Assembly: GCF_028368995.1 (NCBI RefSeq)
Contig: NZ_JAQNDL010000002.1
Location: 1,088,001-1,152,000, forward strand
Source of the DNA: Nannocystis bainbridge
GTDB lineage: Bacteria; Myxococcota_A; Polyangia; Nannocystales; Nannocystaceae
Direction of reading: 5' to 3'
DNA length: 64,000 nucleotides
The notes under the pieces were generated by a model. It did not search any database. It was given only the letters and a program-made list of their open reading frames with translations, and was not told the DNA's origin. The position numbers were made by a program, and so were the translations under genes. Below, in pieces: positions 537 through 11,285 of the stretch (positions within the stretch are counted from its first letter, which is position 1; every line of letters begins with the position of its first letter).

Positions 537-1412
537 ATGGCGCCCGAGCTGTTCACTCTCCCGGGCCTCGGGTGGGCCATCACGTCCTACGGACTCGCGG
601 TCGCCGTCGCGCTGGTGACCGCGTGGCTGGTGTCGCTGCTGCTGGCCCGCCGCGACAAGCTGCCCCCCGAGGTCCTCGGCACCGTATTCGTGCTGTCGGC
701 CATCGCTGGGCTGCTCGCCGCGCGCGCCGGTCATCTGCTGCAGCAGGGGCAAGGGCTCGAGCTGTCGCACCTGCGCTCGCTGCCGGCCGGCGGCCTGGCG
801 GTGTTCGGCGGGCTGTTCGCGGCGCTGGCGGTGGCAACGATCGGTTGTCGGCGCTTCCAGGTGCCGACGCTGGCGTGGCTCGACTGCTGGGCTCCGGCCG
901 TCGCGCTCGGCGGGGTGATCGAGCGGGTCGGGGCGTTCTTCGCCGGGGCTGATTTCGGCATGTACGTCGGGCCAGGTGACTTGGGACATGGCCTCGGGGT
1001 CACGTACCCCGCCGGCTCACCGGCGTTCCTGCTGCACACGGCGGCGTTCCCTGGGCTGCCCGGGCTCACCGAGACGACGTCGGCGCCGGTGCACCCGGTC
1101 CAGCTGTACCTGGCGGCCACCTGCGTGGTGGCGGCGGGCGCGGGCTTCTTGTTGCGCCGGTTCCGTCGCTTCTCGGGCCAGCCGCTCCTCGCGGTCGCGG
1201 CGGTGTTCCTGCTCGGCCGCGCGGTGGTGTTCGAGCCGCTGCGCTTCGACGCGTCGCCGCTGACGCTCGGGCCGCTCCGGCTGCAACAGGTGTCGGGGCT
1301 CGGGCTGCTGCTGGCGGTCGCGGTCGCGTGGTGGATGCTGTCCGCCCGCGCGGCGGCGCAACCGAAGCTGGCGCGCCAGTGGGAGGGGGGCCCGTGGACG
1401 CCTCGCGCGTGA
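537..1412 (+). CDS. lgt: Prolipoprotein diacylglyceryl transferase family protein
   Basis: Multi-TM protein with ITSYGL, GGLAVFGG, RVGAFFAG-DFG, VHPVQLY and EPLR motifs typical of Lgt. Confidence 0.8.
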   Translation: MAPELFTLPGLGWAITSYGLAVAVALVTAWLVSLLLARRDKLPPEVLGTVFVLSAIAGLLAARAGHLLQQGQGLELSHLRSLPAGGLAVFGGLFAALAVATIGCRRFQVPTLAWLDCWAPAVALGGVIERVGAFFAGADFGMYVGPGDLGHGLGVTYPAGSPAFLLHTAAFPGLPGLTETTSAPVHPVQLYLAATCVVAAGAGFLLRRFRRFSGQPLLAVAAVFLLGRAVVFEPLRFDASPLTLGPLRLQQVSGLGLLLAVAVAWWMLSARAAAQPKLARQWEGGPWTPRA

Positions 1413-2062
1413 TCCGTCCGCCGCCGATCCCGGTAGTGGTGATCCACGGGGCCCTGCGTTCGCGCGTGGGCCTGTGGCCGGTGGTCCGCTACCTGGAGAA
1501 CCGCGGCTTTCAGGCGGCCGCCTTCGGCTACGCGACCCGCACCGACAGCCTCGAGCGCCACGCGGAGCGGCTCGAGCAGTTCCTCACCACCTGGCTCGAA
1601 GGCCAGAAGGTGCCGACGCTCGGGATCCTGACCCACAGCATGGGCGGGCTGGTCGCGCGGGCGTACCTGGCCCGGCCGGGAGCGGCCGAGCAGGCGCACC
1701 GGCAACGCGTCGCCATGTTGGCGCCGCCGAACCAGGGAGCGGCGCTGGCGGCCCGGCTGCGGGGCTTCAAGCCGTTTCGCTGGCTGTACGGCGCGGCGGC
1801 CGAGGTGCTGCAACCCGATCGCGCGGCCATGCTGCCGCCGCCGCCCACGAGCGCCCAGGTGCTGATCCTGGCCGGCGGCAAGCGCAAGGGCGAGCGCGGC
1901 TACTCGCGCTGGATCGCCGGCAACAACGACGGCCTGGTCGGCGTGGCCGAGACGGCGCTGCCGGGGATCGATCCGGAGCTGATCGGCGGGGCCCACAGCG
2001 TGCTGCAGTGGCGCCCCTCGGTGCTGGCCCGGGCTGCGGAGTTCCTGGCCGCGAACGAGTGA
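1409..2062 (+). CDS. Alpha/beta-fold hydrolase (esterase/lipase-like)
   Basis: VVVIHG, nucleophile elbow THSMGG, APPNQG, NDGLV, GAHS; GTG start overlaps the lgt stop (GTGA). Confidence 0.8.
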   Translation: MIRPPPIPVVVIHGALRSRVGLWPVVRYLENRGFQAAAFGYATRTDSLERHAERLEQFLTTWLEGQKVPTLGILTHSMGGLVARAYLARPGAAEQAHRQRVAMLAPPNQGAALAARLRGFKPFRWLYGAAAEVLQPDRAAMLPPPPTSAQVLILAGGKRKGERGYSRWIAGNNDGLVGVAETALPGIDPELIGGAHSVLQWRPSVLARAAEFLAANE

Positions 2063-2135: not shown

Positions 2136-3167
2136 TCACATCGGCAGCGGCGGGGCGCAGGTCGAGACGCCGGCGCCGACGATCCGGACCGGGGCCTGGG
2201 TGAGCAGGGTGAGCGCCTGGTCGCTGTCGTCGCTGTTGTCGAAGTCGAGGTGCCAGACCTCGCTGTTGGTGACGAAAGCGCCGGTGGAGGTGAAGAGGTA
2301 GAAGTCGCCGCCCCACCAGGCGAACGCGAACGCGCTCTCGCTCTTGAGACCGGGCAGCGGCAGCACGTCGATCACGGCGCCGGTGTCCTTGTCGTACTCG
2401 GTGAGGATCGAGGGCGCTAAGCCCTGGAACGCGAACAGCCGGCCGGTGCCGGTGCCGGTGAGCTCGCCCCAGGCGTAGTCGATGCCGGCGATCGTCGAGA
2501 GGACGAGGGACTGCGGATCGATGACGCCGAGCGCTCCCACGTCGGGGCCCTGGAGGTCGGGCGAGATGCCGGAGTGGGCGTAGAGCTTGTCGCACGGGTC
2601 GTTCAGGCTGTTGGCGACGAAGGCCATGCCGAACTGCGGGAACATCGGGTTGTCGGGGGTGAACCCGGGATCGAGGCACTTCACGGGGTCGCTGGCGTCG
2701 TTGAGGTCGACGGTATAGAGGTCGCCGTTCCAGTACTGAATCCAGGCGCGGCCCTTGCGACTGACGCCCATCGAATAGGTGTCGACCATGCCGCCGCAGT
2801 GGATGTCGGCGATAAAGGCGAACTCGCCCGACTTCGGATCGAAGCTCCACAGCGAGCCGACATCGGAGAGGACGTACACGAGCTCGGTGCCCTCGGCGCA
2901 CGGACAGCCGACCTCGGGCTCGTTGTCGGCGCCGGTCATCTCGATGCCGGTGGTGGTCGGCTGGTCGCCGCTGTCCCAGCCGCTGCCGCCCGGACCCCCG
3001 GTTCCGCCGTCGGTCGCGGAGACGAAGCCGTTGGCGTCGTTGCCGTCACCGTCGCCGTCGTCGTCGTCGTCGAAGTCGCCATCGTCGTCGCCGCCGAACA
3101 GAGGGAAGGGACAGGCAGGGAGGAGCGAGACGGTGACGAGGAGCCCAAGAAGGCGGACGCTGCGCAT
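2136..3167 (-). CDS. Myxobacterial-type lipoprotein with acidic linker and probable beta-propeller domain
   Basis: Signal peptide/lipobox MRSVRLLGLLVTVSLLPAC, D/G-rich linker, ELTGTGTGRLF, FAWWGGDFYLF and C-terminal IVGAGVSTCAP; start moved to the ATG at 3167. Confidence 0.7.
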   Translation of the reverse strand: MRSVRLLGLLVTVSLLPACPFPLFGGDDDGDFDDDDDGDGDGNDANGFVSATDGGTGGPGGSGWDSGDQPTTTGIEMTGADNEPEVGCPCAEGTELVYVLSDVGSLWSFDPKSGEFAFIADIHCGGMVDTYSMGVSRKGRAWIQYWNGDLYTVDLNDASDPVKCLDPGFTPDNPMFPQFGMAFVANSLNDPCDKLYAHSGISPDLQGPDVGALGVIDPQSLVLSTIAGIDYAWGELTGTGTGRLFAFQGLAPSILTEYDKDTGAVIDVLPLPGLKSESAFAFAWWGGDFYLFTSTGAFVTNSEVWHLDFDNSDDSDQALTLLTQAPVRIVGAGVSTCAPPLPM

Positions 3168-3329
3168 GATGTCGACGATAGCGAAGATCGCGGTGCGGGC
3201 CCGTAATCGGCCGTCTGGGGCCGCCTGGCGGCGGTTCTCGCGGGCCCGGGTCCGACGGCGGTCCGCCAGCGCCCGCGCGCGTACGACCGCCGGCCGCGGG
3301 GCCGTGATCGCCGACGCGCGCGCGTCACC

Positions 3330-3612
3330 TGTCCCAAGAGATCGGCCCGCTCCGCGCGTCTCGATCGGCGACGCCGTGCATGGCGAAGATCCGGGCGTCA
3401 CCCCCGCCTGTGCCAAGGGCCAGGTGAAGATCGGCCTCCGCATGTGACCCATGGCACCTGGCCTCAAGACCCTGGCGCTTGGGGCATGCCTGAAGGTTCC
3501 GGTGCGCGGCCGGGCGCTGGCGCCGGTCCCGAAGGACAGGTCCCAGAGGTCCTGTCGCTGGGGCCGGGTTCCCCCATGAGTTATCTCCATTCGGTGACTG
3601 TTCTAAGGGCCA
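3330..3612. promoter_or_regulatory. Cluster of ~10 degenerate 14-bp palindromic units in a divergent promoter region
   Basis: Units at 3330, 3409, 3459/3473/3487, 3525/3539/3553 and 3599, e.g. GGTCCCGAAGGACA, TGTGCCAAGGGCCA, TGTTCTAAGGGCCA. Confidence 0.6.
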
Positions 3613-3668
3613 GGAATCATGTGTCATCGTCTGACTCTCCCAATCCACCACCAATGAGCGACGGGACC

Positions 3669-4055
3669 ATGGACGAAAACGAAGTTGCACAAGAGATCGG
3701 CAAGCGCATTCGCCAATGGCGAATGAATACGCCGCCTCCGAAGACGCGCCGCAAGCGGCAGAACGAGACGGGCTGGCGCCCGCACATGACGATCGAGGAG
3801 CTTGCGAAGGCCACCGGCCTGACGGTCACCACCGTCAACAAGCTCGAGCTCGGCTACAAGGCGCCGCGGATCGAGTCGCTGCTGCTGCTCTCGCAGGCCT
3901 TCGGGTGCGATCCCAGCGAGCTCCTGCCGAAGACGAAGCACCGCAACACCGGCAAGTCCGAGCTGCTCAACGAGCTGTCCGCGGCGGCGACGCAGCTGGG
4001 CGCCAAGCAACTCCGCGAGCTCATCAAGCAGGCCCGCGGGATGGAGCCGGGCTGA
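3669..4055 (+). CDS. XRE/Cro-C1 family helix-turn-helix transcriptional regulator
   Basis: IGKRIRQWR...MTIEELAKATGLTVTTVNKLELGYKAPRIESLLLLSQAFGCDPSELL; alternative start at 3654. Confidence 0.85.
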   Translation: MDENEVAQEIGKRIRQWRMNTPPPKTRRKRQNETGWRPHMTIEELAKATGLTVTTVNKLELGYKAPRIESLLLLSQAFGCDPSELLPKTKHRNTGKSELLNELSAAATQLGAKQLRELIKQARGMEPG

Positions 4056-4139
4056 AGGCCCGCCCGGTGGCCGCGGTCCGCACCGCGGCCGCCACCCGTC
4101 CGTCCGGTCGAGAACCGGCGAGACTCTCGATGTGGGGGC

Positions 4140-4168
4140 TTGCGGCCGGGAGCGAGGAAGGCTATAAG
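4140..4168 (+). promoter_or_regulatory. Sigma70-type promoter of tRNA-Val
   Basis: TTGCGG(4140)-17 nt-TATAAG(4163), followed by a GC-rich discriminator just upstream of the tRNA. Confidence 0.7.
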
Positions 4169-4185
4169 GCGCCTCCACCCGCTGC

Positions 4186-4257
4186 GGGCGCGTAACTCAG
4201 CGGTAGAGTGCCACCTTCACACGGTGGAAGCCATAGGTTCGATCCCTATCGCGCCCA
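4186..4257 (+). tRNA. tRNA-Val (anticodon CAC)
   Basis: GGGCGCG acceptor stem pairing with CGCGCCC, D arm TAACTCAGCGGTAGAG, anticodon stem CCACC/GGTGG with loop TTCACAC, T loop GTTCGAT; CCA not encoded. Confidence 0.95.
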
Positions 4258-4284
4258 TAAGACAATCAGCCAAGTTCATGGCCC

Positions 4285-4316
4285 CGAGAGCCGCCGCAAG
4301 GCGGCTCTCGTCGTTT
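4285..4316 (+). terminator. Hairpin terminator after tRNA
   Basis: Perfect 11-bp stem CGAGAGCCGCC-GCAA-GGCGGCTCTCG with a weak T tail. Confidence 0.65.
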
Positions 4317-4488
4317 GGTCGCTCGATCATCCGGAGTGAGTGACGCGATCGCCGCGCGATGGGGAACCGCGAGGTGCTGACAGTGCGCTCGCCGGTGTGG
4401 CGCGGACGAGAGGCGAGCGTGGTCCGGGGATGCGCGTGGGAATCGCGCGAGTCCGGGGCGAGAGGCAGGAGCGCCGGAGGGCCAGACG

Positions 4489-4794
4489 TCAGCGACGGCG
4501 CTCGCGTGCCTCGGCGCGCGCGTCGATCGCGTCCTTCGCTTCCTTGAGGCCGACGCCGTGGACCTCGCGGAAGCGCTTGATCGCCTCGATCTTCTGATCG
4601 TCGCGCAACAGTCGGTCGAGCTCGGCCTCGAATGCCGACAGCGCCGGTCTGGACGCCTGGGTGAACTCCCAGCGCAGAGCTTCGACCGCGGCGCGGGCGG
4701 CCAGCAGGGTGCCGCCGTGGCGAGCGCGATGGCGGCGAATGGCCTCGATGGTCGCGCCGTGGCGGACGAGCTCGCGGATGTCGGCGTCGGTCAC
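4489..4794 (-). CDS. Small protein with duplicated ribosomal L7/L12 C-terminal-like motif
   Basis: TIEAIRRHRARHGGTLLAARAAVE and KIEAIKRFREVHGVGLKEAKDAID; not the canonical rplL. Confidence 0.7.
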   Translation of the reverse strand: MTDADIRELVRHGATIEAIRRHRARHGGTLLAARAAVEALRWEFTQASRPALSAFEAELDRLLRDDQKIEAIKRFREVHGVGLKEAKDAIDARAEARERRR

Positions 4795-5828: not shown

Positions 5829-6530
5829 GTGACCGACGAGCCGCTGAGCTTGACCAAGGTGACGGCGTCGATCGGCGGAGCGCTGCTCGCCGCGTCGTTC
5901 TTCCTGCCGCTGGTGGACATGCGGGCCGGCGGCTCGGCGGCGGGAGACGTGTTCGGGGTGGAGTCGATGCGCCGCCAGATCGAGGGCTCGCGCGAGTTCG
6001 AGAGCGTGAAGCCGCTGATCGCTCCGGCGCTTCAGCAGCTCGAGGCGTTCGGCGCGGGGCCAAGCCTGCGCAACCTCTCGCGCCTGGTCGTGGCGACGAA
6101 GGAGATCGTCGACACGGTGGTGGCCACCGGGCTGGCGCCGGCCGAGGCGAAGGTGGCCTCGACGGCGCTCGGCGCGACGCGGCTGCTCTTATGGTTGGTG
6201 CCGCTGGTGGGGGCGGTGCAAGCGGTGCTGCCGCTGCTGACGCGCTTTCGCGGCTACGCCGGCTTCTTCGGCCTGCTGGCGCGGTTCGGCTTCGGCCTGG
6301 TGTTCGTGACGCTGGCCCTGATCCCGCTGCTCGGGGCCCCGGGCGCGCGCCCGTTCCTCGGGCTCGCGGTCTATGCGGCCCTGTTCGGGGGCGGGCTGAT
6401 GATGGCGAGCGGCATGTTGGGAGTGAGCCGCGGCAACTTCTTGCTGGTGTTCGCGGCCCAGGCCGGGGTGCTGGCGGCGGTGGTGTTCGGGCTGCGGGCG
6501 CTGGTCGAGGCCGGTCAGCGCGCGCTGTGA
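5829..6530 (+). CDS. Hypothetical integral membrane protein
   Basis: Several hydrophobic TM segments and typical codon bias; GTG at 5829 lies 6 nt after TAGCCT (alternative start 5823). Confidence 0.7.
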   Translation: MTDEPLSLTKVTASIGGALLAASFFLPLVDMRAGGSAAGDVFGVESMRRQIEGSREFESVKPLIAPALQQLEAFGAGPSLRNLSRLVVATKEIVDTVVATGLAPAEAKVASTALGATRLLLWLVPLVGAVQAVLPLLTRFRGYAGFFGLLARFGFGLVFVTLALIPLLGAPGARPFLGLAVYAALFGGGLMMASGMLGVSRGNFLLVFAAQAGVLAAVVFGLRALVEAGQRAL

Positions 6531-6536
6531 GTCCGA

Positions 6537-6606
6537 AGGTCTCGGGGACATGTCGAAAAGGGCATGTCTCCGGGGGCATGGTCGATCGGGCATGTCCTCG
6601 GGGACA
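6537..6606. repeat. 14-bp palindromic unit array (5 units)
   Basis: AGGTCTCGGGGACA|TGTCGAAAAGGGCA|TGTCTCCGGGGGCA|TGGTCGATCGGGCA|TGTCCTCGGGGACA immediately after the stop codon. Confidence 0.9.
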
Positions 6607-7245: not shown

Positions 7246-10200
7246 TTGACCGATCCCACGAAGGCCGCCGAATCCGATGCGCAGGGGCTGCGCGATGCGT
7301 TTCACCAGCACTTCGGCGTCGTGCGAGCCGCCGCCCGTCTGTTCGGGATCCCGTCGTCGTTGCTCGACGACGTGGCCCTGCAGACGTTCGTGATGGCCCA
7401 CGGGCGCGGCGAGGACTTGCAGCAGCTGGCGATCGCCCGCTCGCGGCTGGTCACGCTGACGCGGCGAGTGGCCGAGTGGTACCGCGAGGAGATGCCGCCG
7501 GCGACCGTCGACGTGCCGGTCGAATTTCCCGGTTCGGATGTGCTGGCGCGGTTTGTCGGGGGTCTGGCGCCGCAGGCCCGCGAGGTGTTCGTGCTGGCGG
7601 AGCTCGGCGGTCTGCGGGTCCCCGAGATCTCGGCAGAGCTCGGAGTCGGCTTCGAGGCGGCGCGAGCCCAGGTGGTCGAACTGGTGCGGGACTTCGCGGC
7701 GGCGACGGCTGCGGCCGGCGCCGAAGAGGTGCTTCACGACCTGGTGCGCGTGCTCGATCCGCCGCCTGTCCAGCGCGAGCTGCAGTTCGCGGCGCTGGAG
7801 GCCCGGCTGGCGCCGCGGTCGCTGACGCCGGAGGGGGCCGAGCCGGCGCATTCGCAGTGGATCATGCCGATCAGCCTCCGGCGAGCCTCGAGCGGGGCGA
7901 TGCAGGCGGCAGAGCCGGCCGCGGAGGCAGGTGCTTCGGGACAGGTCGGCCCGCTGGCCGCGGGGACTAATGCTTCGGGACAGGTGGCGGTCGAGGGCTC
8001 GCTGGCCGCGGGGACAGGTGCTTCGGGACAGGTCGGCTCGCTGGCCGCGGGGACAGGTGCTTCGGGACAGGTCGACTCGCTGGCCGCGGGGACAGGCCCT
8101 TCGGGACATGTCGTCGGGGGGGCCGGTGCTTCAGGCGATATCCTCGGCTTGAGCCCGGGAGGGCTGGTGGGCGGGGCCGGCGGGACGCCGGGCGGGGCCG
8201 GTGCGGAGGCCCAGGATGGTGCTCCGGCAGGATCGGGCGCGAGTGGACAGCTGGCCGGAGGGACAGGTGCGGCGCCGGGGTTGGCACCGCCTCCGCCGAT
8301 CGGCGGGCAGGGAGTTCAGGGCGCGGAGGTCAATAGCGGGTCCGTGCTGGCCGCGCTCGCGCAGATGACCGAAGGGACAGGTGCCGTCGGGCACGGCCAG
8401 GGTCTGCCGCCTGGGGGCGGGCCGATGGCCGCCGGCCCAGGGGGGGCGCCGGCCGGAGTCGGTGCGGTTGCGCAAAACCCCGCGTGGCCTGCTCCGGGCG
8501 CGAGTGGTCAGGTAGCAGGAGGGACAGGTGGGGCGCCCGCCTGGGGACCGCCGCCCGGGCTCGGGGGTAGCGGGCAGAGTGCTGGTTCGCCGGGTGCTGC
8601 CGCTCCGGGTGGGGCGAGTGGGCAGATGGCCGGAGGGACAGGTGGTGCGCCTGCCTGGGGTCCGCCGCCCGGGGTCGCCGGGAGTTCGCAGAATGCTGGC
8701 TGGCCGGCTCCGCCCGGATCGGGAACTCCGGCGAGTGGGCAGATGGCCGGAGGGACAGGCGGTGCGCCTGCCTGGGGTCCGCCGCCTGGGGTCGTCGGGA
8801 ATCCGCAGAATGCTGGTTGGCCGGCTCCGCCCGGACCGGGGACTCCGGCGAGTGGGCAGATGGCCGGAGGGACAGGTGGTGCGCCTGCCTGGGGTCCGCC
8901 GCCAGGGATTGGCGGCAGTCCGCAGAATTCTGGTTGGCCGGCGTCGCCGCCAGGCGTGGGCGGGGCGGTCGCGGGTTTGTTGCCGCCCGGTCCGGGGGGA
9001 CAGGGCCCTGCGGGGAGCTGGCCTGCGCCTCAAGGCAACGGTCCGGCCGCGGCGCCTGCGGTGAGCGGGCCTTTGGCCGGAGGCCCGGGTGCGGTTTCGG
9101 GGTTGCCGGGCGTCGGTGAGCCGCCGCTCGGTTCAGGGCCAGTATCGCCAGTTTCTCCCGCTCCCGGAGCCTGGGGACCGCCGCCGGGGGGGTTGCCGAC
9201 CGGCGCGGCGCCCGGGAGTTCGGGTGCAGCGCCCGCGCCTGGGCAGGGCAGTCCGGTTTTGGGAGCGACGGCGCCGATCTTCGGTGGTTTGCTCGCGGGT
9301 TCCGGGGTGCCGTCAATGCCTGTCGGGACAGGTCCTTCGGGCCAGATGGCCGGGCCGGGGATGGCTCCGGAGGCAGGTCCCTTGGGACATGCGCCGACCG
9401 GGTTCCAGCCGCCGGCCGGACCGGGGATGGCTCCGGGGACAGGTCCTTTGGGGCATGTGCCGACCGGGTTCCAGCCGCTGGCCGGACCGGCGATGGCTCC
9501 GGGGACAGGTCCTTTGGGGCATGTGCCGGCGGGGCCGCAACCCGCGCTGGCGCCGGCCGGGAACTCAGGGGTGGAGCAGGGTGGGGTGATGTCCCCGGGG
9601 ACAGGTCCCTGGGGACAGGTTCCCTCGGGGCCGCAACCAGCGTTGCCGCTGGCGGGGCATTCGGAGCAGGGTGGAGTGATGGCCCCGGGGAGAGGTCCCT
9701 GGGGACAGGCTCCTCCGGGGCCGCAACCAGCGCTGCAGCCGGCTGGGCATTCGGGCGCGGAGCAGGGGCAGATGGCGCCTGGGACAGGTCCCTGGGGACA
9801 GGCTCCTGCGGGGCCGCAGCCGGCGCTTCCGCCCGGACAGGCGGCGGGGATGGCTCCCGGGACAGGTCCTTGGGGACATCCAGCGGGGTCGCAACCGGCG
9901 TCTGAACCGGCGGCGGGGACCGGACCTTGGGGACATCCCGCGGGGCCGCAGGTGGCGCTGCCGCCGGCGGGGCATTCGGGCGCGGAGCCGGGGAGTGGGA
10001 TGGCCCCGGGGACAGGTCCCTGGGGACATGCTCCCTCGGCGCCGCAGGCGGCGCTGCCACCGGGACAGGGTGCTGGCATGGCTCCGGGGACAGGTCCCTG
10101 GGGACAGGTGCCGCCCGGACCGGCGCCTGGGGCGGCGTGGGGGCCGCCCGGTCCGGTCCCGGCGCCTGGGCGCCAAGCTGCCCCGCCGAAGCGGTCGGGC

Positions 10201-11010
10201 TCGATCGTCGCCGACCTCGACGTACCCGAGCGCGACCTCAATGAACGTCCGCGGCGGCTCGTGCCCGGATCGATGGCGCTCGTGCTGGTTTGCTTGCTGG
10301 TGCTCGGGATCGCCGGGGGCGGCGGATACCTCGCCTGGGAGCGGTCGCAGGCGCAGCCGACGCTCGAACCGACGGTCGAGCCCGAGGCCGTGACGCTGCC
10401 GCCGGTCGAAGGGCCCGAGGCCGCGCCCGTGCCGGTCGATCCCGCCGTGCCGGGGGCGACGACGTCGACTCCGACGGGCACGTCGCCGGGCGCGACACCC
10501 GGCACGACGCCGACCACGTCACCGGGCACGACGCCGGGCAAGACGGATCCGGCGCCGACGAAGACGGGCACGACGCCGACGACCAAGCCTCCGAAGACGA
10601 AGTCCGAGTCCGGCAGCTCCACGCCGAAGAAGCCGCCGGCCGAGAAGACGGGCTCGAGCTCGAAGACGGGCTCGGGCGGCACCAAGAAGGCCGATCCGGC
10701 CGAGGAGCTGGCCAAGCGCAAGGACCAGGCGGACGCGGCAGATCCGGGGCGCGTGCTGGTCGAGCTCGAGTATCTCAGCGCGATCGACAAGGCGCTCAAG
10801 GCCGGCAACTGGGCCCAGGCGCTGGCCTACATCGATCAGCACGACAAGGAGCTGCCGGGCGGGCAGTTGGTCGACAAGTTCGACGAGCGGCGGATCCGGG
10901 CGCTGTGCGGGATGGGTCGGGCGAGCGAGGCGCAGGCCAAGGTGACGCAGATCCTGGCCAAGCGCCCGAGCTCGAAGGTGAAGACGGCCCTGGCCGAGTC
11001 CTGCAAATGA
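7246..11010 (+). CDS. Degenerate ECF sigma-70-like N-terminus fused through a long Gly/Pro repeat region to a TM helix and a C-terminal TPR-like (anti-sigma-type) domain
   Basis: Region-2-like HFGVVRAAARLFGIPSSLLDDVALQTF, region-4-like LAPQAREVFVLAELGGLRVPEISAELGV, TM MALVLVCLLVLGIAGGGGYLAW, C-terminal ELEYLSAIDKALKAGNWAQALAYIDQHDKELPGGQL...RIRALC; TTG start uncertain. Confidence 0.65.
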   Translation: MTDPTKAAESDAQGLRDAFHQHFGVVRAAARLFGIPSSLLDDVALQTFVMAHGRGEDLQQLAIARSRLVTLTRRVAEWYREEMPPATVDVPVEFPGSDVLARFVGGLAPQAREVFVLAELGGLRVPEISAELGVGFEAARAQVVELVRDFAAATAAAGAEEVLHDLVRVLDPPPVQRELQFAALEARLAPRSLTPEGAEPAHSQWIMPISLRRASSGAMQAAEPAAEAGASGQVGPLAAGTNASGQVAVEGSLAAGTGASGQVGSLAAGTGASGQVDSLAAGTGPSGHVVGGAGASGDILGLSPGGLVGGAGGTPGGAGAEAQDGAPAGSGASGQLAGGTGAAPGLAPPPPIGGQGVQGAEVNSGSVLAALAQMTEGTGAVGHGQGLPPGGGPMAAGPGGAPAGVGAVAQNPAWPAPGASGQVAGGTGGAPAWGPPPGLGGSGQSAGSPGAAAPGGASGQMAGGTGGAPAWGPPPGVAGSSQNAGWPAPPGSGTPASGQMAGGTGGAPAWGPPPGVVGNPQNAGWPAPPGPGTPASGQMAGGTGGAPAWGPPPGIGGSPQNSGWPASPPGVGGAVAGLLPPGPGGQGPAGSWPAPQGNGPAAAPAVSGPLAGGPGAVSGLPGVGEPPLGSGPVSPVSPAPGAWGPPPGGLPTGAAPGSSGAAPAPGQGSPVLGATAPIFGGLLAGSGVPSMPVGTGPSGQMAGPGMAPEAGPLGHAPTGFQPPAGPGMAPGTGPLGHVPTGFQPLAGPAMAPGTGPLGHVPAGPQPALAPAGNSGVEQGGVMSPGTGPWGQVPSGPQPALPLAGHSEQGGVMAPGRGPWGQAPPGPQPALQPAGHSGAEQGQMAPGTGPWGQAPAGPQPALPPGQAAGMAPGTGPWGHPAGSQPASEPAAGTGPWGHPAGPQVALPPAGHSGAEPGSGMAPGTGPWGHAPSAPQAALPPGQGAGMAPGTGPWGQVPPGPAPGAAWGPPGPVPAPGRQAAPPKRSGSIVADLDVPERDLNERPRRLVPGSMALVLVCLLVLGIAGGGGYLAWERSQAQPTLEPTVEPEAVTLPPVEGPEAAPVPVDPAVPGATTSTPTGTSPGATPGTTPTTSPGTTPGKTDPAPTKTGTTPTTKPPKTKSESGSSTPKKPPAEKTGSSSKTGSGGTKKADPAEELAKRKDQADAADPGRVLVELEYLSAIDKALKAGNWAQALAYIDQHDKELPGGQLVDKFDERRIRALCGMGRASEAQAKVTQILAKRPSSKVKTALAESCK
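7925..10110 (+). repeat. Intragenic tandem repeats (39-bp, 117-bp and ~66-96-bp units), each carrying phased 14-bp units
   Basis: SLAAGTGASGQV x3-4 (39 bp), ASGQMAGGTGGAPAWGPPPG x3-4 (117-bp period at 8625/8742/8859) and MAPGTGP(W/L)G(H/Q) x~10. Confidence 0.9.
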
Positions 11011-11082: not shown

Positions 11083-11285
11083 TGTCTTTCGGGACATGTC
11101 CGTTCGGACTTGTGAAGTCCGAGCAATGGTGGCAACGGATATTGTCCCGAAGGACATGTCCTTGAGGATATGTGCACGCCCGGCGAACTCGCGAGATGGA
11201 CATTGTGTCCGGGCCGCTGAGACTGGCTGGAATGCTCCGCTCGTTGCGATGGCGAGGACAATCTCCAAAGATGTCCTGAAGGACA
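11083..11285. repeat. 14-bp palindromic unit arrays (2+2+1 units)
   Basis: TGTCTTTCGGGACA|TGTCCGTTCGGACT (11083), TGTCCCGAAGGACA|TGTCCTTGAGGATA (11143), TGTCCTGAAGGACA (11272). Confidence 0.9.

Follow-up and report, generated by a model that had tools for sequence, protein, structure and literature searches.

A Nannocystis-clade XRE-type protein whose distribution matches that of an abundant 14-bp palindrome

Introduction

A stretch of 64,000 nucleotides from Nannocystis bainbridge (hereafter the window; G000:C3:1088001-1152000, G000 being the source genome of 11.05 Mb, 71.5% G+C and 5 contigs) carries numerous copies of a 14-base-pair (bp) palindrome, TGTCC-N4-GGACA, together with a gene at 3669-4055 for a small helix-turn-helix (HTH) protein of the XRE type, whose upstream region contains degenerate units of the same motif. 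The question raised by this locus is whether the XRE protein reads the motif, as the first-pass annotation of the sequence had proposed. The analysis provides one concrete, clonable candidate reader, whose distribution matches that of the motif in 73 members of the family and in 400 additional genomes from the phylum. The protein is a narrowly distributed new member of the known XRE regulator family. The explanation that we favour, tentatively and at slightly below even confidence, is that of a small, clade-limited XRE repressor which would sit as a dimer on boxes in its own promoter and repress itself. Should the protein bind the motif throughout the chromosome, it would represent a so far undescribed kind of HTH protein, sequence-specific, confined to one lineage and coating the chromosome in connection with gene ends; should it not, it would count as another autoregulated XRE repressor, and attention would shift to other clade-specific DNA binders.

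The motif in the window and in the genome

Nine exact copies of TGTCC-N4-GGACA occur in the window against 0.02 expected, a number reached by none of 100 shuffles, and copies with at most two mismatches number 101 against 26.1 +/- 4.6. The whole genome holds 1987 exact copies, the best among 29 arm-permuted palindromes reaching 83, and the flanks of the exact copies show an adjacent unit in a 14-bp register. Exact units are densest in convergent intergenic regions (1.51 per kb), followed by co-directional (0.60) and divergent ones (0.19), with 0.087 per kb in coding sequence; these classes derive from crude calls of 7802 genes with approximate starts. The contrast between convergent and divergent regions bears out the earlier remark that large arrays lie mostly at 3' ends. 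In the 3654 co-directional intergenic regions, read in the direction of transcription, 329 single variants of the motif would preserve pairing in RNA as a G-U wobble and 283 would abolish it, a near-symmetric outcome (p ~0.06, normal approximation). Since an RNA hairpin under selection should strongly favour the wobble, the motif acts as a double-stranded DNA element.

The centre of the motif is non-random genome-wide, with positions 6-7 preferring C/T and positions 8-9 preferring G/A (YYRR); A+T makes up about 0.4 of the four central letters, compared with 0.285 for the genome, and the most frequent centres are CCGA, TTCG, CGAA, CCGG and CTCG. Beside the XRE locus, the convergent genes 1394-2062 (+) and 2136-3170 (-) are separated by a textbook gene-end array, in which three abutting units at 2072-2113, with 1, 2 and 1 mismatches, take up the gap exactly. 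The stop codons at 6530 and 11010 are followed by similar arrays, at 6551-6606 and 11083-11170 respectively. The open reading frame (ORF) ending at 11010 (7246-11010, +) encodes 1254 Gly/Pro-rich residues with a weak Sigma70_r4_2 match near the N-terminus (E 1.2e-4, under the cut-off) and contains tandem repeats of 39, 117, 66, 90 and 78 bp (at 7917-8113, 8500-8942, 9348-9528 and 9492-10108). These repeats are rich in motif-like, in-register units (e.g., TGGCCCCGGGGACA abutting GGTCCCTGGGGACA) and yield the peptide repeats GTGPWGQ and ASGQV; either arrays were absorbed into the coding sequence or the ORF is partly non-coding. A literature search on Nannocystis or myxobacterial intergenic palindromes of the TGTCC/GGACA type returned nothing relevant among the matches listed.

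The XRE gene and its protein

The gene in the window, termed paralog A, comprises the following features:

3669-4055 (+), XRE/Cro-C1-type HTH gene, paralog A, 128 residues; Pfam HTH_3, with the ortholog-conserved start M-(D/N/T)-E-N-E-V
3729-3785 (+), basic loop TPPPKTRRKRQNETGWRPH, residues 21-39, between helix 1 and the HTH; alignment and model
3789-3860 (+), helix-turn-helix TIEELAKATGLTVTTVNKLELGYK, residues 41-64, with helices 42-49 and 53-61; alignment
3948-4040 (+), two C-terminal helices, residues 94-108 and 112-124; AlphaFold2 model

The XRE-HTH gene proposed in the first pass is a real one: HTH_3 (PF01381) scores 49.2 bits over residues 40-85 (cut-off 23; E 5.4e-13), HTH_26 likewise exceeds its cut-off (39.8 bits against 22), and the start at 3669 is conserved in orthologs, an alternative in-frame ATG at 3654 being kept by close relatives only. 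The AlphaFold2 model, built from a 22-row alignment (mean predicted local distance difference test score, pLDDT, 74), places helices at residues 3-20, 42-49, 53-61, 68-78, 82-85, 94-108 and 112-124, and contains a five-helix bundle with helices 2 and 3 as the HTH, that is, the XRE fold. Residues 21-41 are modelled without secondary structure (pLDDT 63-67). The 22 aligned sequences, 69-97% identical overall, share 58 invariant columns, including most of the basic loop; within the HTH (residues 41-64) 20 of the 24 residues are invariant, and the segment T49-K64, which holds the recognition helix, is wholly so. The loop itself is conserved in all 22 sequences, with P22-P24, K25, R27, K29, E33, G35, W36, R37 and H39 invariant, and distant relatives also carry a basic loop of different sequence. 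What had been described as an unusual basic insertion is thus present between helix 1 and the HTH, as a trait of the family rather than a peculiarity of this protein. The C-terminal helices possibly serve self-association; the prediction of a homodimer from two copies scored 0.27, compared with a mark of 0.42, and speaks neither for nor against a dimer.

Structural comparison against the PDB with Foldseek gave SinR (1b0n_A) as best row at E 3.8e-3, no row reaching E 0.001 or better, and the rows listed were nearly all of XRE type (SinR, NHTF, phage repressors, P22 c2 on its operator, C.AhdI, ClgR, DdrO, BldD, EspR). Among 5.8 billion proteins the tight family accounts for 34 clusters, with identities of 56% or more throughout, and an exhaustive profile search recovered an outer family made of a thin set of metagenome proteins of about 120 residues, 26-47% identical and with the same layout. 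A third, distant XRE-type ORF exists in the source genome (G000:C1:4374343-4374642, -), a 128-residue open frame matched at profile E 1e-14 over family-profile positions 26-123.

Each of 24 RNA runs holds at most 0.18 of the stretch. Short metatranscriptome contigs of at least 99% identity cover parts of 3648-3998 (X1 records 1 and 4, X2 record 13, X9 record 18), and no contig lies on 3100-3647 in the four metatranscriptome contig sets compared. These contigs hint that the gene occurs in RNA libraries; they carry no start, strand or level, and DNA carry-over is possible.

Co-occurrence of protein and motif

Protein and motif were compared across 73 genomes of the family, 23 of them motif-rich (genera g1, g2 and g4) and 50 motif-poor in 14 genera, orthologs being matches at E 1e-52 or better. 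Exact-copy counts ranged from 114 to 2090 in g1 (11/11 genomes), from 87 to 169 in g2 (5/5) and from 67 to 696 in g4 (7/7), against 0-20 in the other 50 genomes. Orthologs of the XRE protein were present in 11/11 genomes of g1, 4/5 of g2 and 5/7 of g4, that is, in 20 of the 23 motif-rich genomes and in none of the 50 motif-poor ones. The misses, G061, G063 and G066, are genomes of 60, 65 and 67% completeness in which a profile search was also empty. In G063 a contig end interrupts the syntenic S41 gene just before the expected position of the XRE gene, and G061 and G066 lack even the S41 ortholog of this syntenic position, paralogs of 37-39% being the only matches; a cut or unassembled locus therefore explains all three. 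Among the 400 further genomes of the phylum none was motif-rich, the highest count being 18, and the best profile match there was 1.4e-15, against 4.7e-48 in G000. The idea that the protein is the reader of the motif has thus survived the comparison suggested with it, in which motif-rich relatives might have lacked the ortholog, or the reverse.

These counts favour the broadest reading of the locus, in which paralog A and a second copy elsewhere in the genome, paralog B, would together constitute an abundant, sequence-specific binder of all TGTCC-N4-GGACA units; dimers would tile the head-to-tail gene-end arrays every 14 bp, and the weak units at their own promoter would provide negative feedback. 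The small size and sharp boundary of the protein family, the invariance of T49-K64 and of most of the HTH, and the behaviour of the motif as double-stranded DNA point the same way, as does copy number: genomes carry two copies in the genus with about tenfold motif density and one in the sister genera. A control strengthens the match further, since a BlaI-like regulator beside a divergent region as rich in motif units as that of the XRE gene occurs in 58 of the 73 genomes, motif-poor ones included, so that the phyletic match is not automatic or trivial. We nevertheless regard this reading as unlikely. In a maximum-likelihood tree built on RpoB from 30 genomes (motif-rich and motif-poor ones numbering 15 each, the best 30 of 58 matches among the 73; 1393 columns; rooted on G054), g1, g2 and g4 fall on one side of a branch with a Shimodaira-Hasegawa-like approximate likelihood ratio test (SH-aLRT) support of 99, and one change explains both traits. 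With all motif-rich genomes in a single clade, protein and motif coincide through one evolutionary event only, which any clade-specific gene would share and which weighs against a genome-wide reader. A 5+4+5 palindrome, moreover, suits many dimeric families, such as CRP/FNR and PadR. The idea of a genome-wide reader passes every test run, and these tests have little independent power, which keeps its probability low.

Head-to-tail junctions are found across the clade (375 in G000, 154 in G066, 18 in G064, 5 in G059, 2 in G013 and 1 in G011). The word TGTTC-N4-GAACA, considered as a sister-genus variant, was discarded, with only 1-7 copies each in the sister genera, and the word is the same across the clade. 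Three genomes of genus g32 (G048, G049 and G051), which have no XRE ortholog, hold 17-20 exact copies compared with 2-7 in a reversed control, a small surplus that could reflect noise or a minor regulon.

Motif units upstream of the XRE gene

The XRE gene is separated from a minus-strand, lipoprotein-like gene starting at 3170 by the divergent intergenic region 3171-3668, in and near which the following motif-related features are found:

3330-3343 (+), single weak unit TGTCCCAAGAGATC, 7.5 bits; not retained in the listed orthologs
3409-3422 (+), single unit TGTGCCAAGGGCCA, 9.2 bits; conserved at about -260 in five close orthologs of paralog A
3459-3500 (+), weak phased triplet of units 3459 (3.3 bits), 3473 (6.5) and 3487 (1.4); sum 11.2 bits, 0.31 triplets of this kind expected in 483 bp
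3525-3566 (+), phased triplet of units 3525 (11.9 bits), 3539 (4.3) and 3553 (4.4); sum 20.6 bits, 0.20 triplets of this kind expected in 483 bp
3596-3627 (+), 32-nucleotide (nt) block shared with paralog B (blastn), made of a motif-like box 3599-3612, TGTTCTAAGGGCCA (11.6 bits), and an in-register 14-nt core 3613-3626, GGAATCATGTGTCA

Mismatches to the consensus number one in unit 3525, two in 3409 and 3599, three in 3330, 3473, 3539 and 3553, four in 3459 and five in 3487; only three named units therefore stay within two mismatches, and seven of the nine within three. The span 3330-3612 holds nine positions with at most three mismatches against 1.24 expected (genome mean 4.39 per kb), two of which, 3445 and 3584, were absent from the first-pass list. 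Scored with a weight matrix built from the half-site excess in G000, five units reach at least 6 bits (3330, 3409, 3473, 3525 and 3599; about one expected), 3473 being alone in doing so within its triplet, and all nine named positions belong to the top 1% of genome positions. The first-pass observation of weak units in the divergent region is in this sense partly confirmed. Units 3525 and 3553 recur in all five close orthologs of paralog A, and 3539 in two.

The overall load is about five times the background, which agrees with the promoter tiling noticed at first, yet this tiling does not single out the XRE gene. Regions with at least five sites of 6 bits or more amount to 52/1426 divergent, 314/3487 tandem and 337/1252 convergent ones, 703/6165 in total or about 11% (crude gene calls). 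The upstream array is present, albeit decayed, modest and not exceptional. Such figures count against a genome-wide reader and agree with an explanation that we hold to be rather unlikely, namely that the XRE protein regulates locally, in an ordinary way, through an operator that has nothing to do with the motif, the units being the inherited remains of a gene-end array and the shared block a plain promoter. The outer family also fits it, as distant metagenomic relatives share both layout and basic loop, which implies that the loop is not tied to the motif.

In one genome of the clade (G008, locus L009), the distal region upstream of paralog A is replaced by more than 80 bp of the 9-bp repeats GGATGATGT/GGATGGTGT, a feature of this genome alone.

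A promoter block in 14-bp register

The upstream regions of paralogs A and B share two pieces only. One is a unit junction within 3525-3566, with 15 of 16 letters (CCCGAAGGACA.GTCC) common to the array that follows the stop codon of the upstream gene at locus B; the other is the 32-nt block, 27/32 identical (blastn, E 5e-6), at -72 and -66 from the respective start codons and conserved in the orthologs of A. Anchored on the start codon, the layout runs from a motif-like box to a 14-nt core (GGAATCATGTGTCA, GGTAACTTGTGTCA or TGAACTTCGTGCCA) and, in several lineages, to a second box. The box-core-box arrangement is in exact register at three sister-genus loci and two Nannocystis A loci, as in L042 (TGGCCCTTGCGTCA, TGAACTTCACGCCA, TGATCGATTGGCCA; 20.8 bits) and L029 (TGTCCCAAGCGCCA, GGAATGATCCGTCA, TGTCCTGGCGGCCA; 23.1 bits). 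At L038, L042, L047, L029 and L031 this promoter triplet ranks first or close to first within its locus (14.6-20.4 kb), at a window fraction of 0.003-0.007, and at four g2 loci the fraction is 0.016-0.06. All 24 of 24 loci have sites of at least 8 bits within 300 bp upstream; these total 64 in 7.2 kb, a density of 8.9 per kb, compared with 0.5-3.1 per kb over the loci as a whole. That the triplet is the best of a 20-kb locus in the low-density sister genera argues against an operator unrelated to the motif, and the 14-bp register of the boxes suits a genome-wide reader as well.

The observations are best accommodated by the autoregulated repressor. A Cro/C1-type HTH protein restricted to the Nannocystis clade, of SinR-like layout with an HTH, two C-terminal helices and an Arg/Lys-rich loop, would form dimers that bind 14-bp boxes with a 5+4+5 layout (TGnnC-N4-GnnCA) flanking the promoter core, here the box 3599-3612, and the dimer on these boxes would repress its own transcription, as phage 434-type and SinR-type proteins do. 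The remaining weak units at 3330-3566 would be an inherited remnant of a gene-end array.

Several points weigh against this repressor. In the five close orthologs of A the promoter triplet scores 4.0 bits (fraction 0.06-0.09), and at B it is negative in six of nine loci (fraction 0.14-0.29) and weak, 0.3-3.6 bits, in the other three; the chance level at B also favours the absence of any link between protein and motif. Across orthologs the boxes keep CGCCA or GGCCA instead of GGACA, and these non-consensus letters may mean a different specificity, which counts equally against a genome-wide reader; GGCCA and CGCCA are among the commonest tolerated variants genome-wide, with 451 and 159 occurrences beside an exact left arm. 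The best-kept letters of the block (TGTGTCATSATG) may be plain promoter elements, and a sigma-70 consensus scan of 3100-4300 gave no promoter-like site, so that the promoter was not located. Many features of the region were inspected, and part of the pattern may reflect analyst selection. Two candidates were dropped: a sigma-54 -24/-12 pair around TGGCACCTGGCCTT and TGGCGCTTGGGGCA was rejected by eye, the spacing or the -12 letters being wrong, and the pattern TGnnCnAAGSGCCAGG, with 35 occurrences in the genome and three in this region, was not used as evidence since it had been derived from these very sites.

The array-type register of the promoter boxes also fits a reversed relation, in which another protein reads the arrays and controls the XRE gene through these boxes. 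A screen of 56 other equally loaded divergent regions (up to 900 bp), with their 80 flanking proteins (up to 500 residues), returned BlaI-like, AraC and WYL proteins as recognisable regulators, of which the BlaI-like one was profiled across genomes; 39 of the 80 have no Pfam family, and unrecognised binders may therefore exist. We rate this relation as very unlikely, given that no candidate reader emerged and that XRE-type repressors commonly autoregulate.

Paralogs and origin of the upstream array

All 10 other genomes of the genus carry both paralogs (A 81-97% identical, B 73-79%), which have an identical HTH, and the two sister genera have one gene copy each. The single-copy genes and B share their upstream neighbour, a TonB-receptor-like gene with CarboxypepD_reg and Plug domains ending in ...LRGVF, and B is accordingly taken as the ancestral locus; the single-copy locus and B also share a downstream S41 peptidase in G000 and G013. 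Chromosomal synteny is stable at both A and B loci. At B and at the single-copy loci the units begin directly behind the ...LRGVF stop codon, so that the ancestral array is an ordinary gene-end array, like thousands elsewhere. This weighs against the operator array envisaged in the first pass and agrees with the absence of a link. As these sequence comparisons show, paralog A arose in Nannocystis by joint duplication of array, promoter and gene, and its weak units at 3330-3566 are best read as the decayed remnant of a gene-end array. The A loci, which lack an upstream gene end, still keep units in all the Nannocystis lineages examined, which speaks against an unrelated operator. The first-pass proposal that the protein reads the motif is thus sustained by the phyletic match and by the recurrence of in-register promoter boxes, and undermined by the single evolutionary event, the ordinary ancestral array and the weak, non-consensus boxes.

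A Crp-like regulator (cNMP_binding and HTH_Crp_2; L078:4637-5344, -, corresponding to G000:C1:4263636-4264343) is encoded some 2.4 kb downstream of paralog B, past both the S41 peptidase gene and a small ORF on the opposite strand. CRP/FNR proteins also read 5+4+5 palindromes and would as a family be a rival class of readers.

Comparison with known systems

Operators of phage 434 span 14 bp, of which five base pairs on either side are contacted and the four in the centre are not, and each control region holds three sites (PMC1636474). The motif TGTCC-N4-GGACA with its variable centre has this geometry, a likeness that concerns the DNA and not the identity of its binder. The XRE protein belongs to the same HTH_3 domain family as the 434 and P22 c2 repressors, and P22 c2 on its operator is a structural neighbour (3jxb_D; template modelling score normalised to the target 0.84, root-mean-square deviation 1.5; Foldseek). 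It differs from both in having no sequence match to any solved chain (a profile of the 22 sequences against 177,635 PDB sequences gave none at E 0.01 or better), in its 19-residue basic loop between helices 1 and 2, and in being encoded by a chromosomal core gene in conserved synteny rather than by a prophage. Phage operators, furthermore, are few spaced sites, whereas the Nannocystis arrays consist of thousands of abutting units.

Extended to these arrays, the likeness would make the XRE paralog pair the dedicated reader of a lineage-specific system, Cro-like dimers coating 14-bp palindromes behind thousands of genes, which is improbable on present evidence. Under such a scheme, the basic loop could aid binding over the uncontacted centre, the coat could mark or insulate gene ends, and the weak promoter units could allow self-titration; successive dimers would be rotated by 120 degrees, as three units span four helical turns, and the word may have spread from the XRE gene's own operator.

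For the autoregulated repressor, SinR of Bacillus subtilis offers a matching arrangement, with the HTH domain preceding two C-terminal helices, and is the best Foldseek row; the match is weak (21% identity), and self-association of the XRE protein is putative. Were the XRE protein a genome-wide reader, its nearest analogue would be the nucleoid-associated protein Gbn (SCO1839) of Streptomyces, which reads a short motif, GATC + (A/T)T, across the genome (PMC9239103), since it too is a small HTH protein limited to one lineage and present at very many sites. Fold family and motif differ, and the abstract mentions neither fixed-register arrays nor a gene-end bias.

Repetitive extragenic palindromic elements (REP/BIME), associated with RAYT transposases, are likewise abundant short extragenic palindromes clustered behind genes; the Nannocystis units differ in being 14 bp long, abutting in exact register and variable in their centres. 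A search of G000 (90% completeness) for Y1_Tnp (PF01797, RAYT-type) gave no match at E 0.001, the control being positive in 6/14 known genomes. As no Y1 transposase match was found in G000, the units were not assigned to the REP/RAYT systems, in line with a motif read by a DNA-binding protein such as the genome-wide reader.

Neighbouring features

The remaining features around paralog A are:

2136-3170 (-), divergent neighbour, lipoprotein-like gene (MRSVRLLGLLVTVSLLPAC...), no Pfam family; ORF and Pfam
4069-4090 (+), G+C-rich inverted repeat behind the stop codon, GGCCGCGGT-CCGC-ACCGCGGCC, not a motif unit; read from the sequence
4186-4257 (+), tRNA-Val (CAC), downstream; ARAGORN, and Rfam tRNA at 68.8 bits

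The lipoprotein-like gene adjoins paralog A at 9/9 A loci with sufficient flank, and the tRNA-Val lies behind paralog A at six loci; by its surroundings, paralog A is a chromosomal gene in stable synteny and not a prophage gene. An Rfam scan of 3000-4400 (E 1 or better) gave no credible match besides the tRNA. Alone behind the tRNA-Val, a 101-residue ORF (4489-4794, -) shows a short match to the ribosomal L7/L12 C-terminal domain over residues 65-92 (E 7.4e-8).

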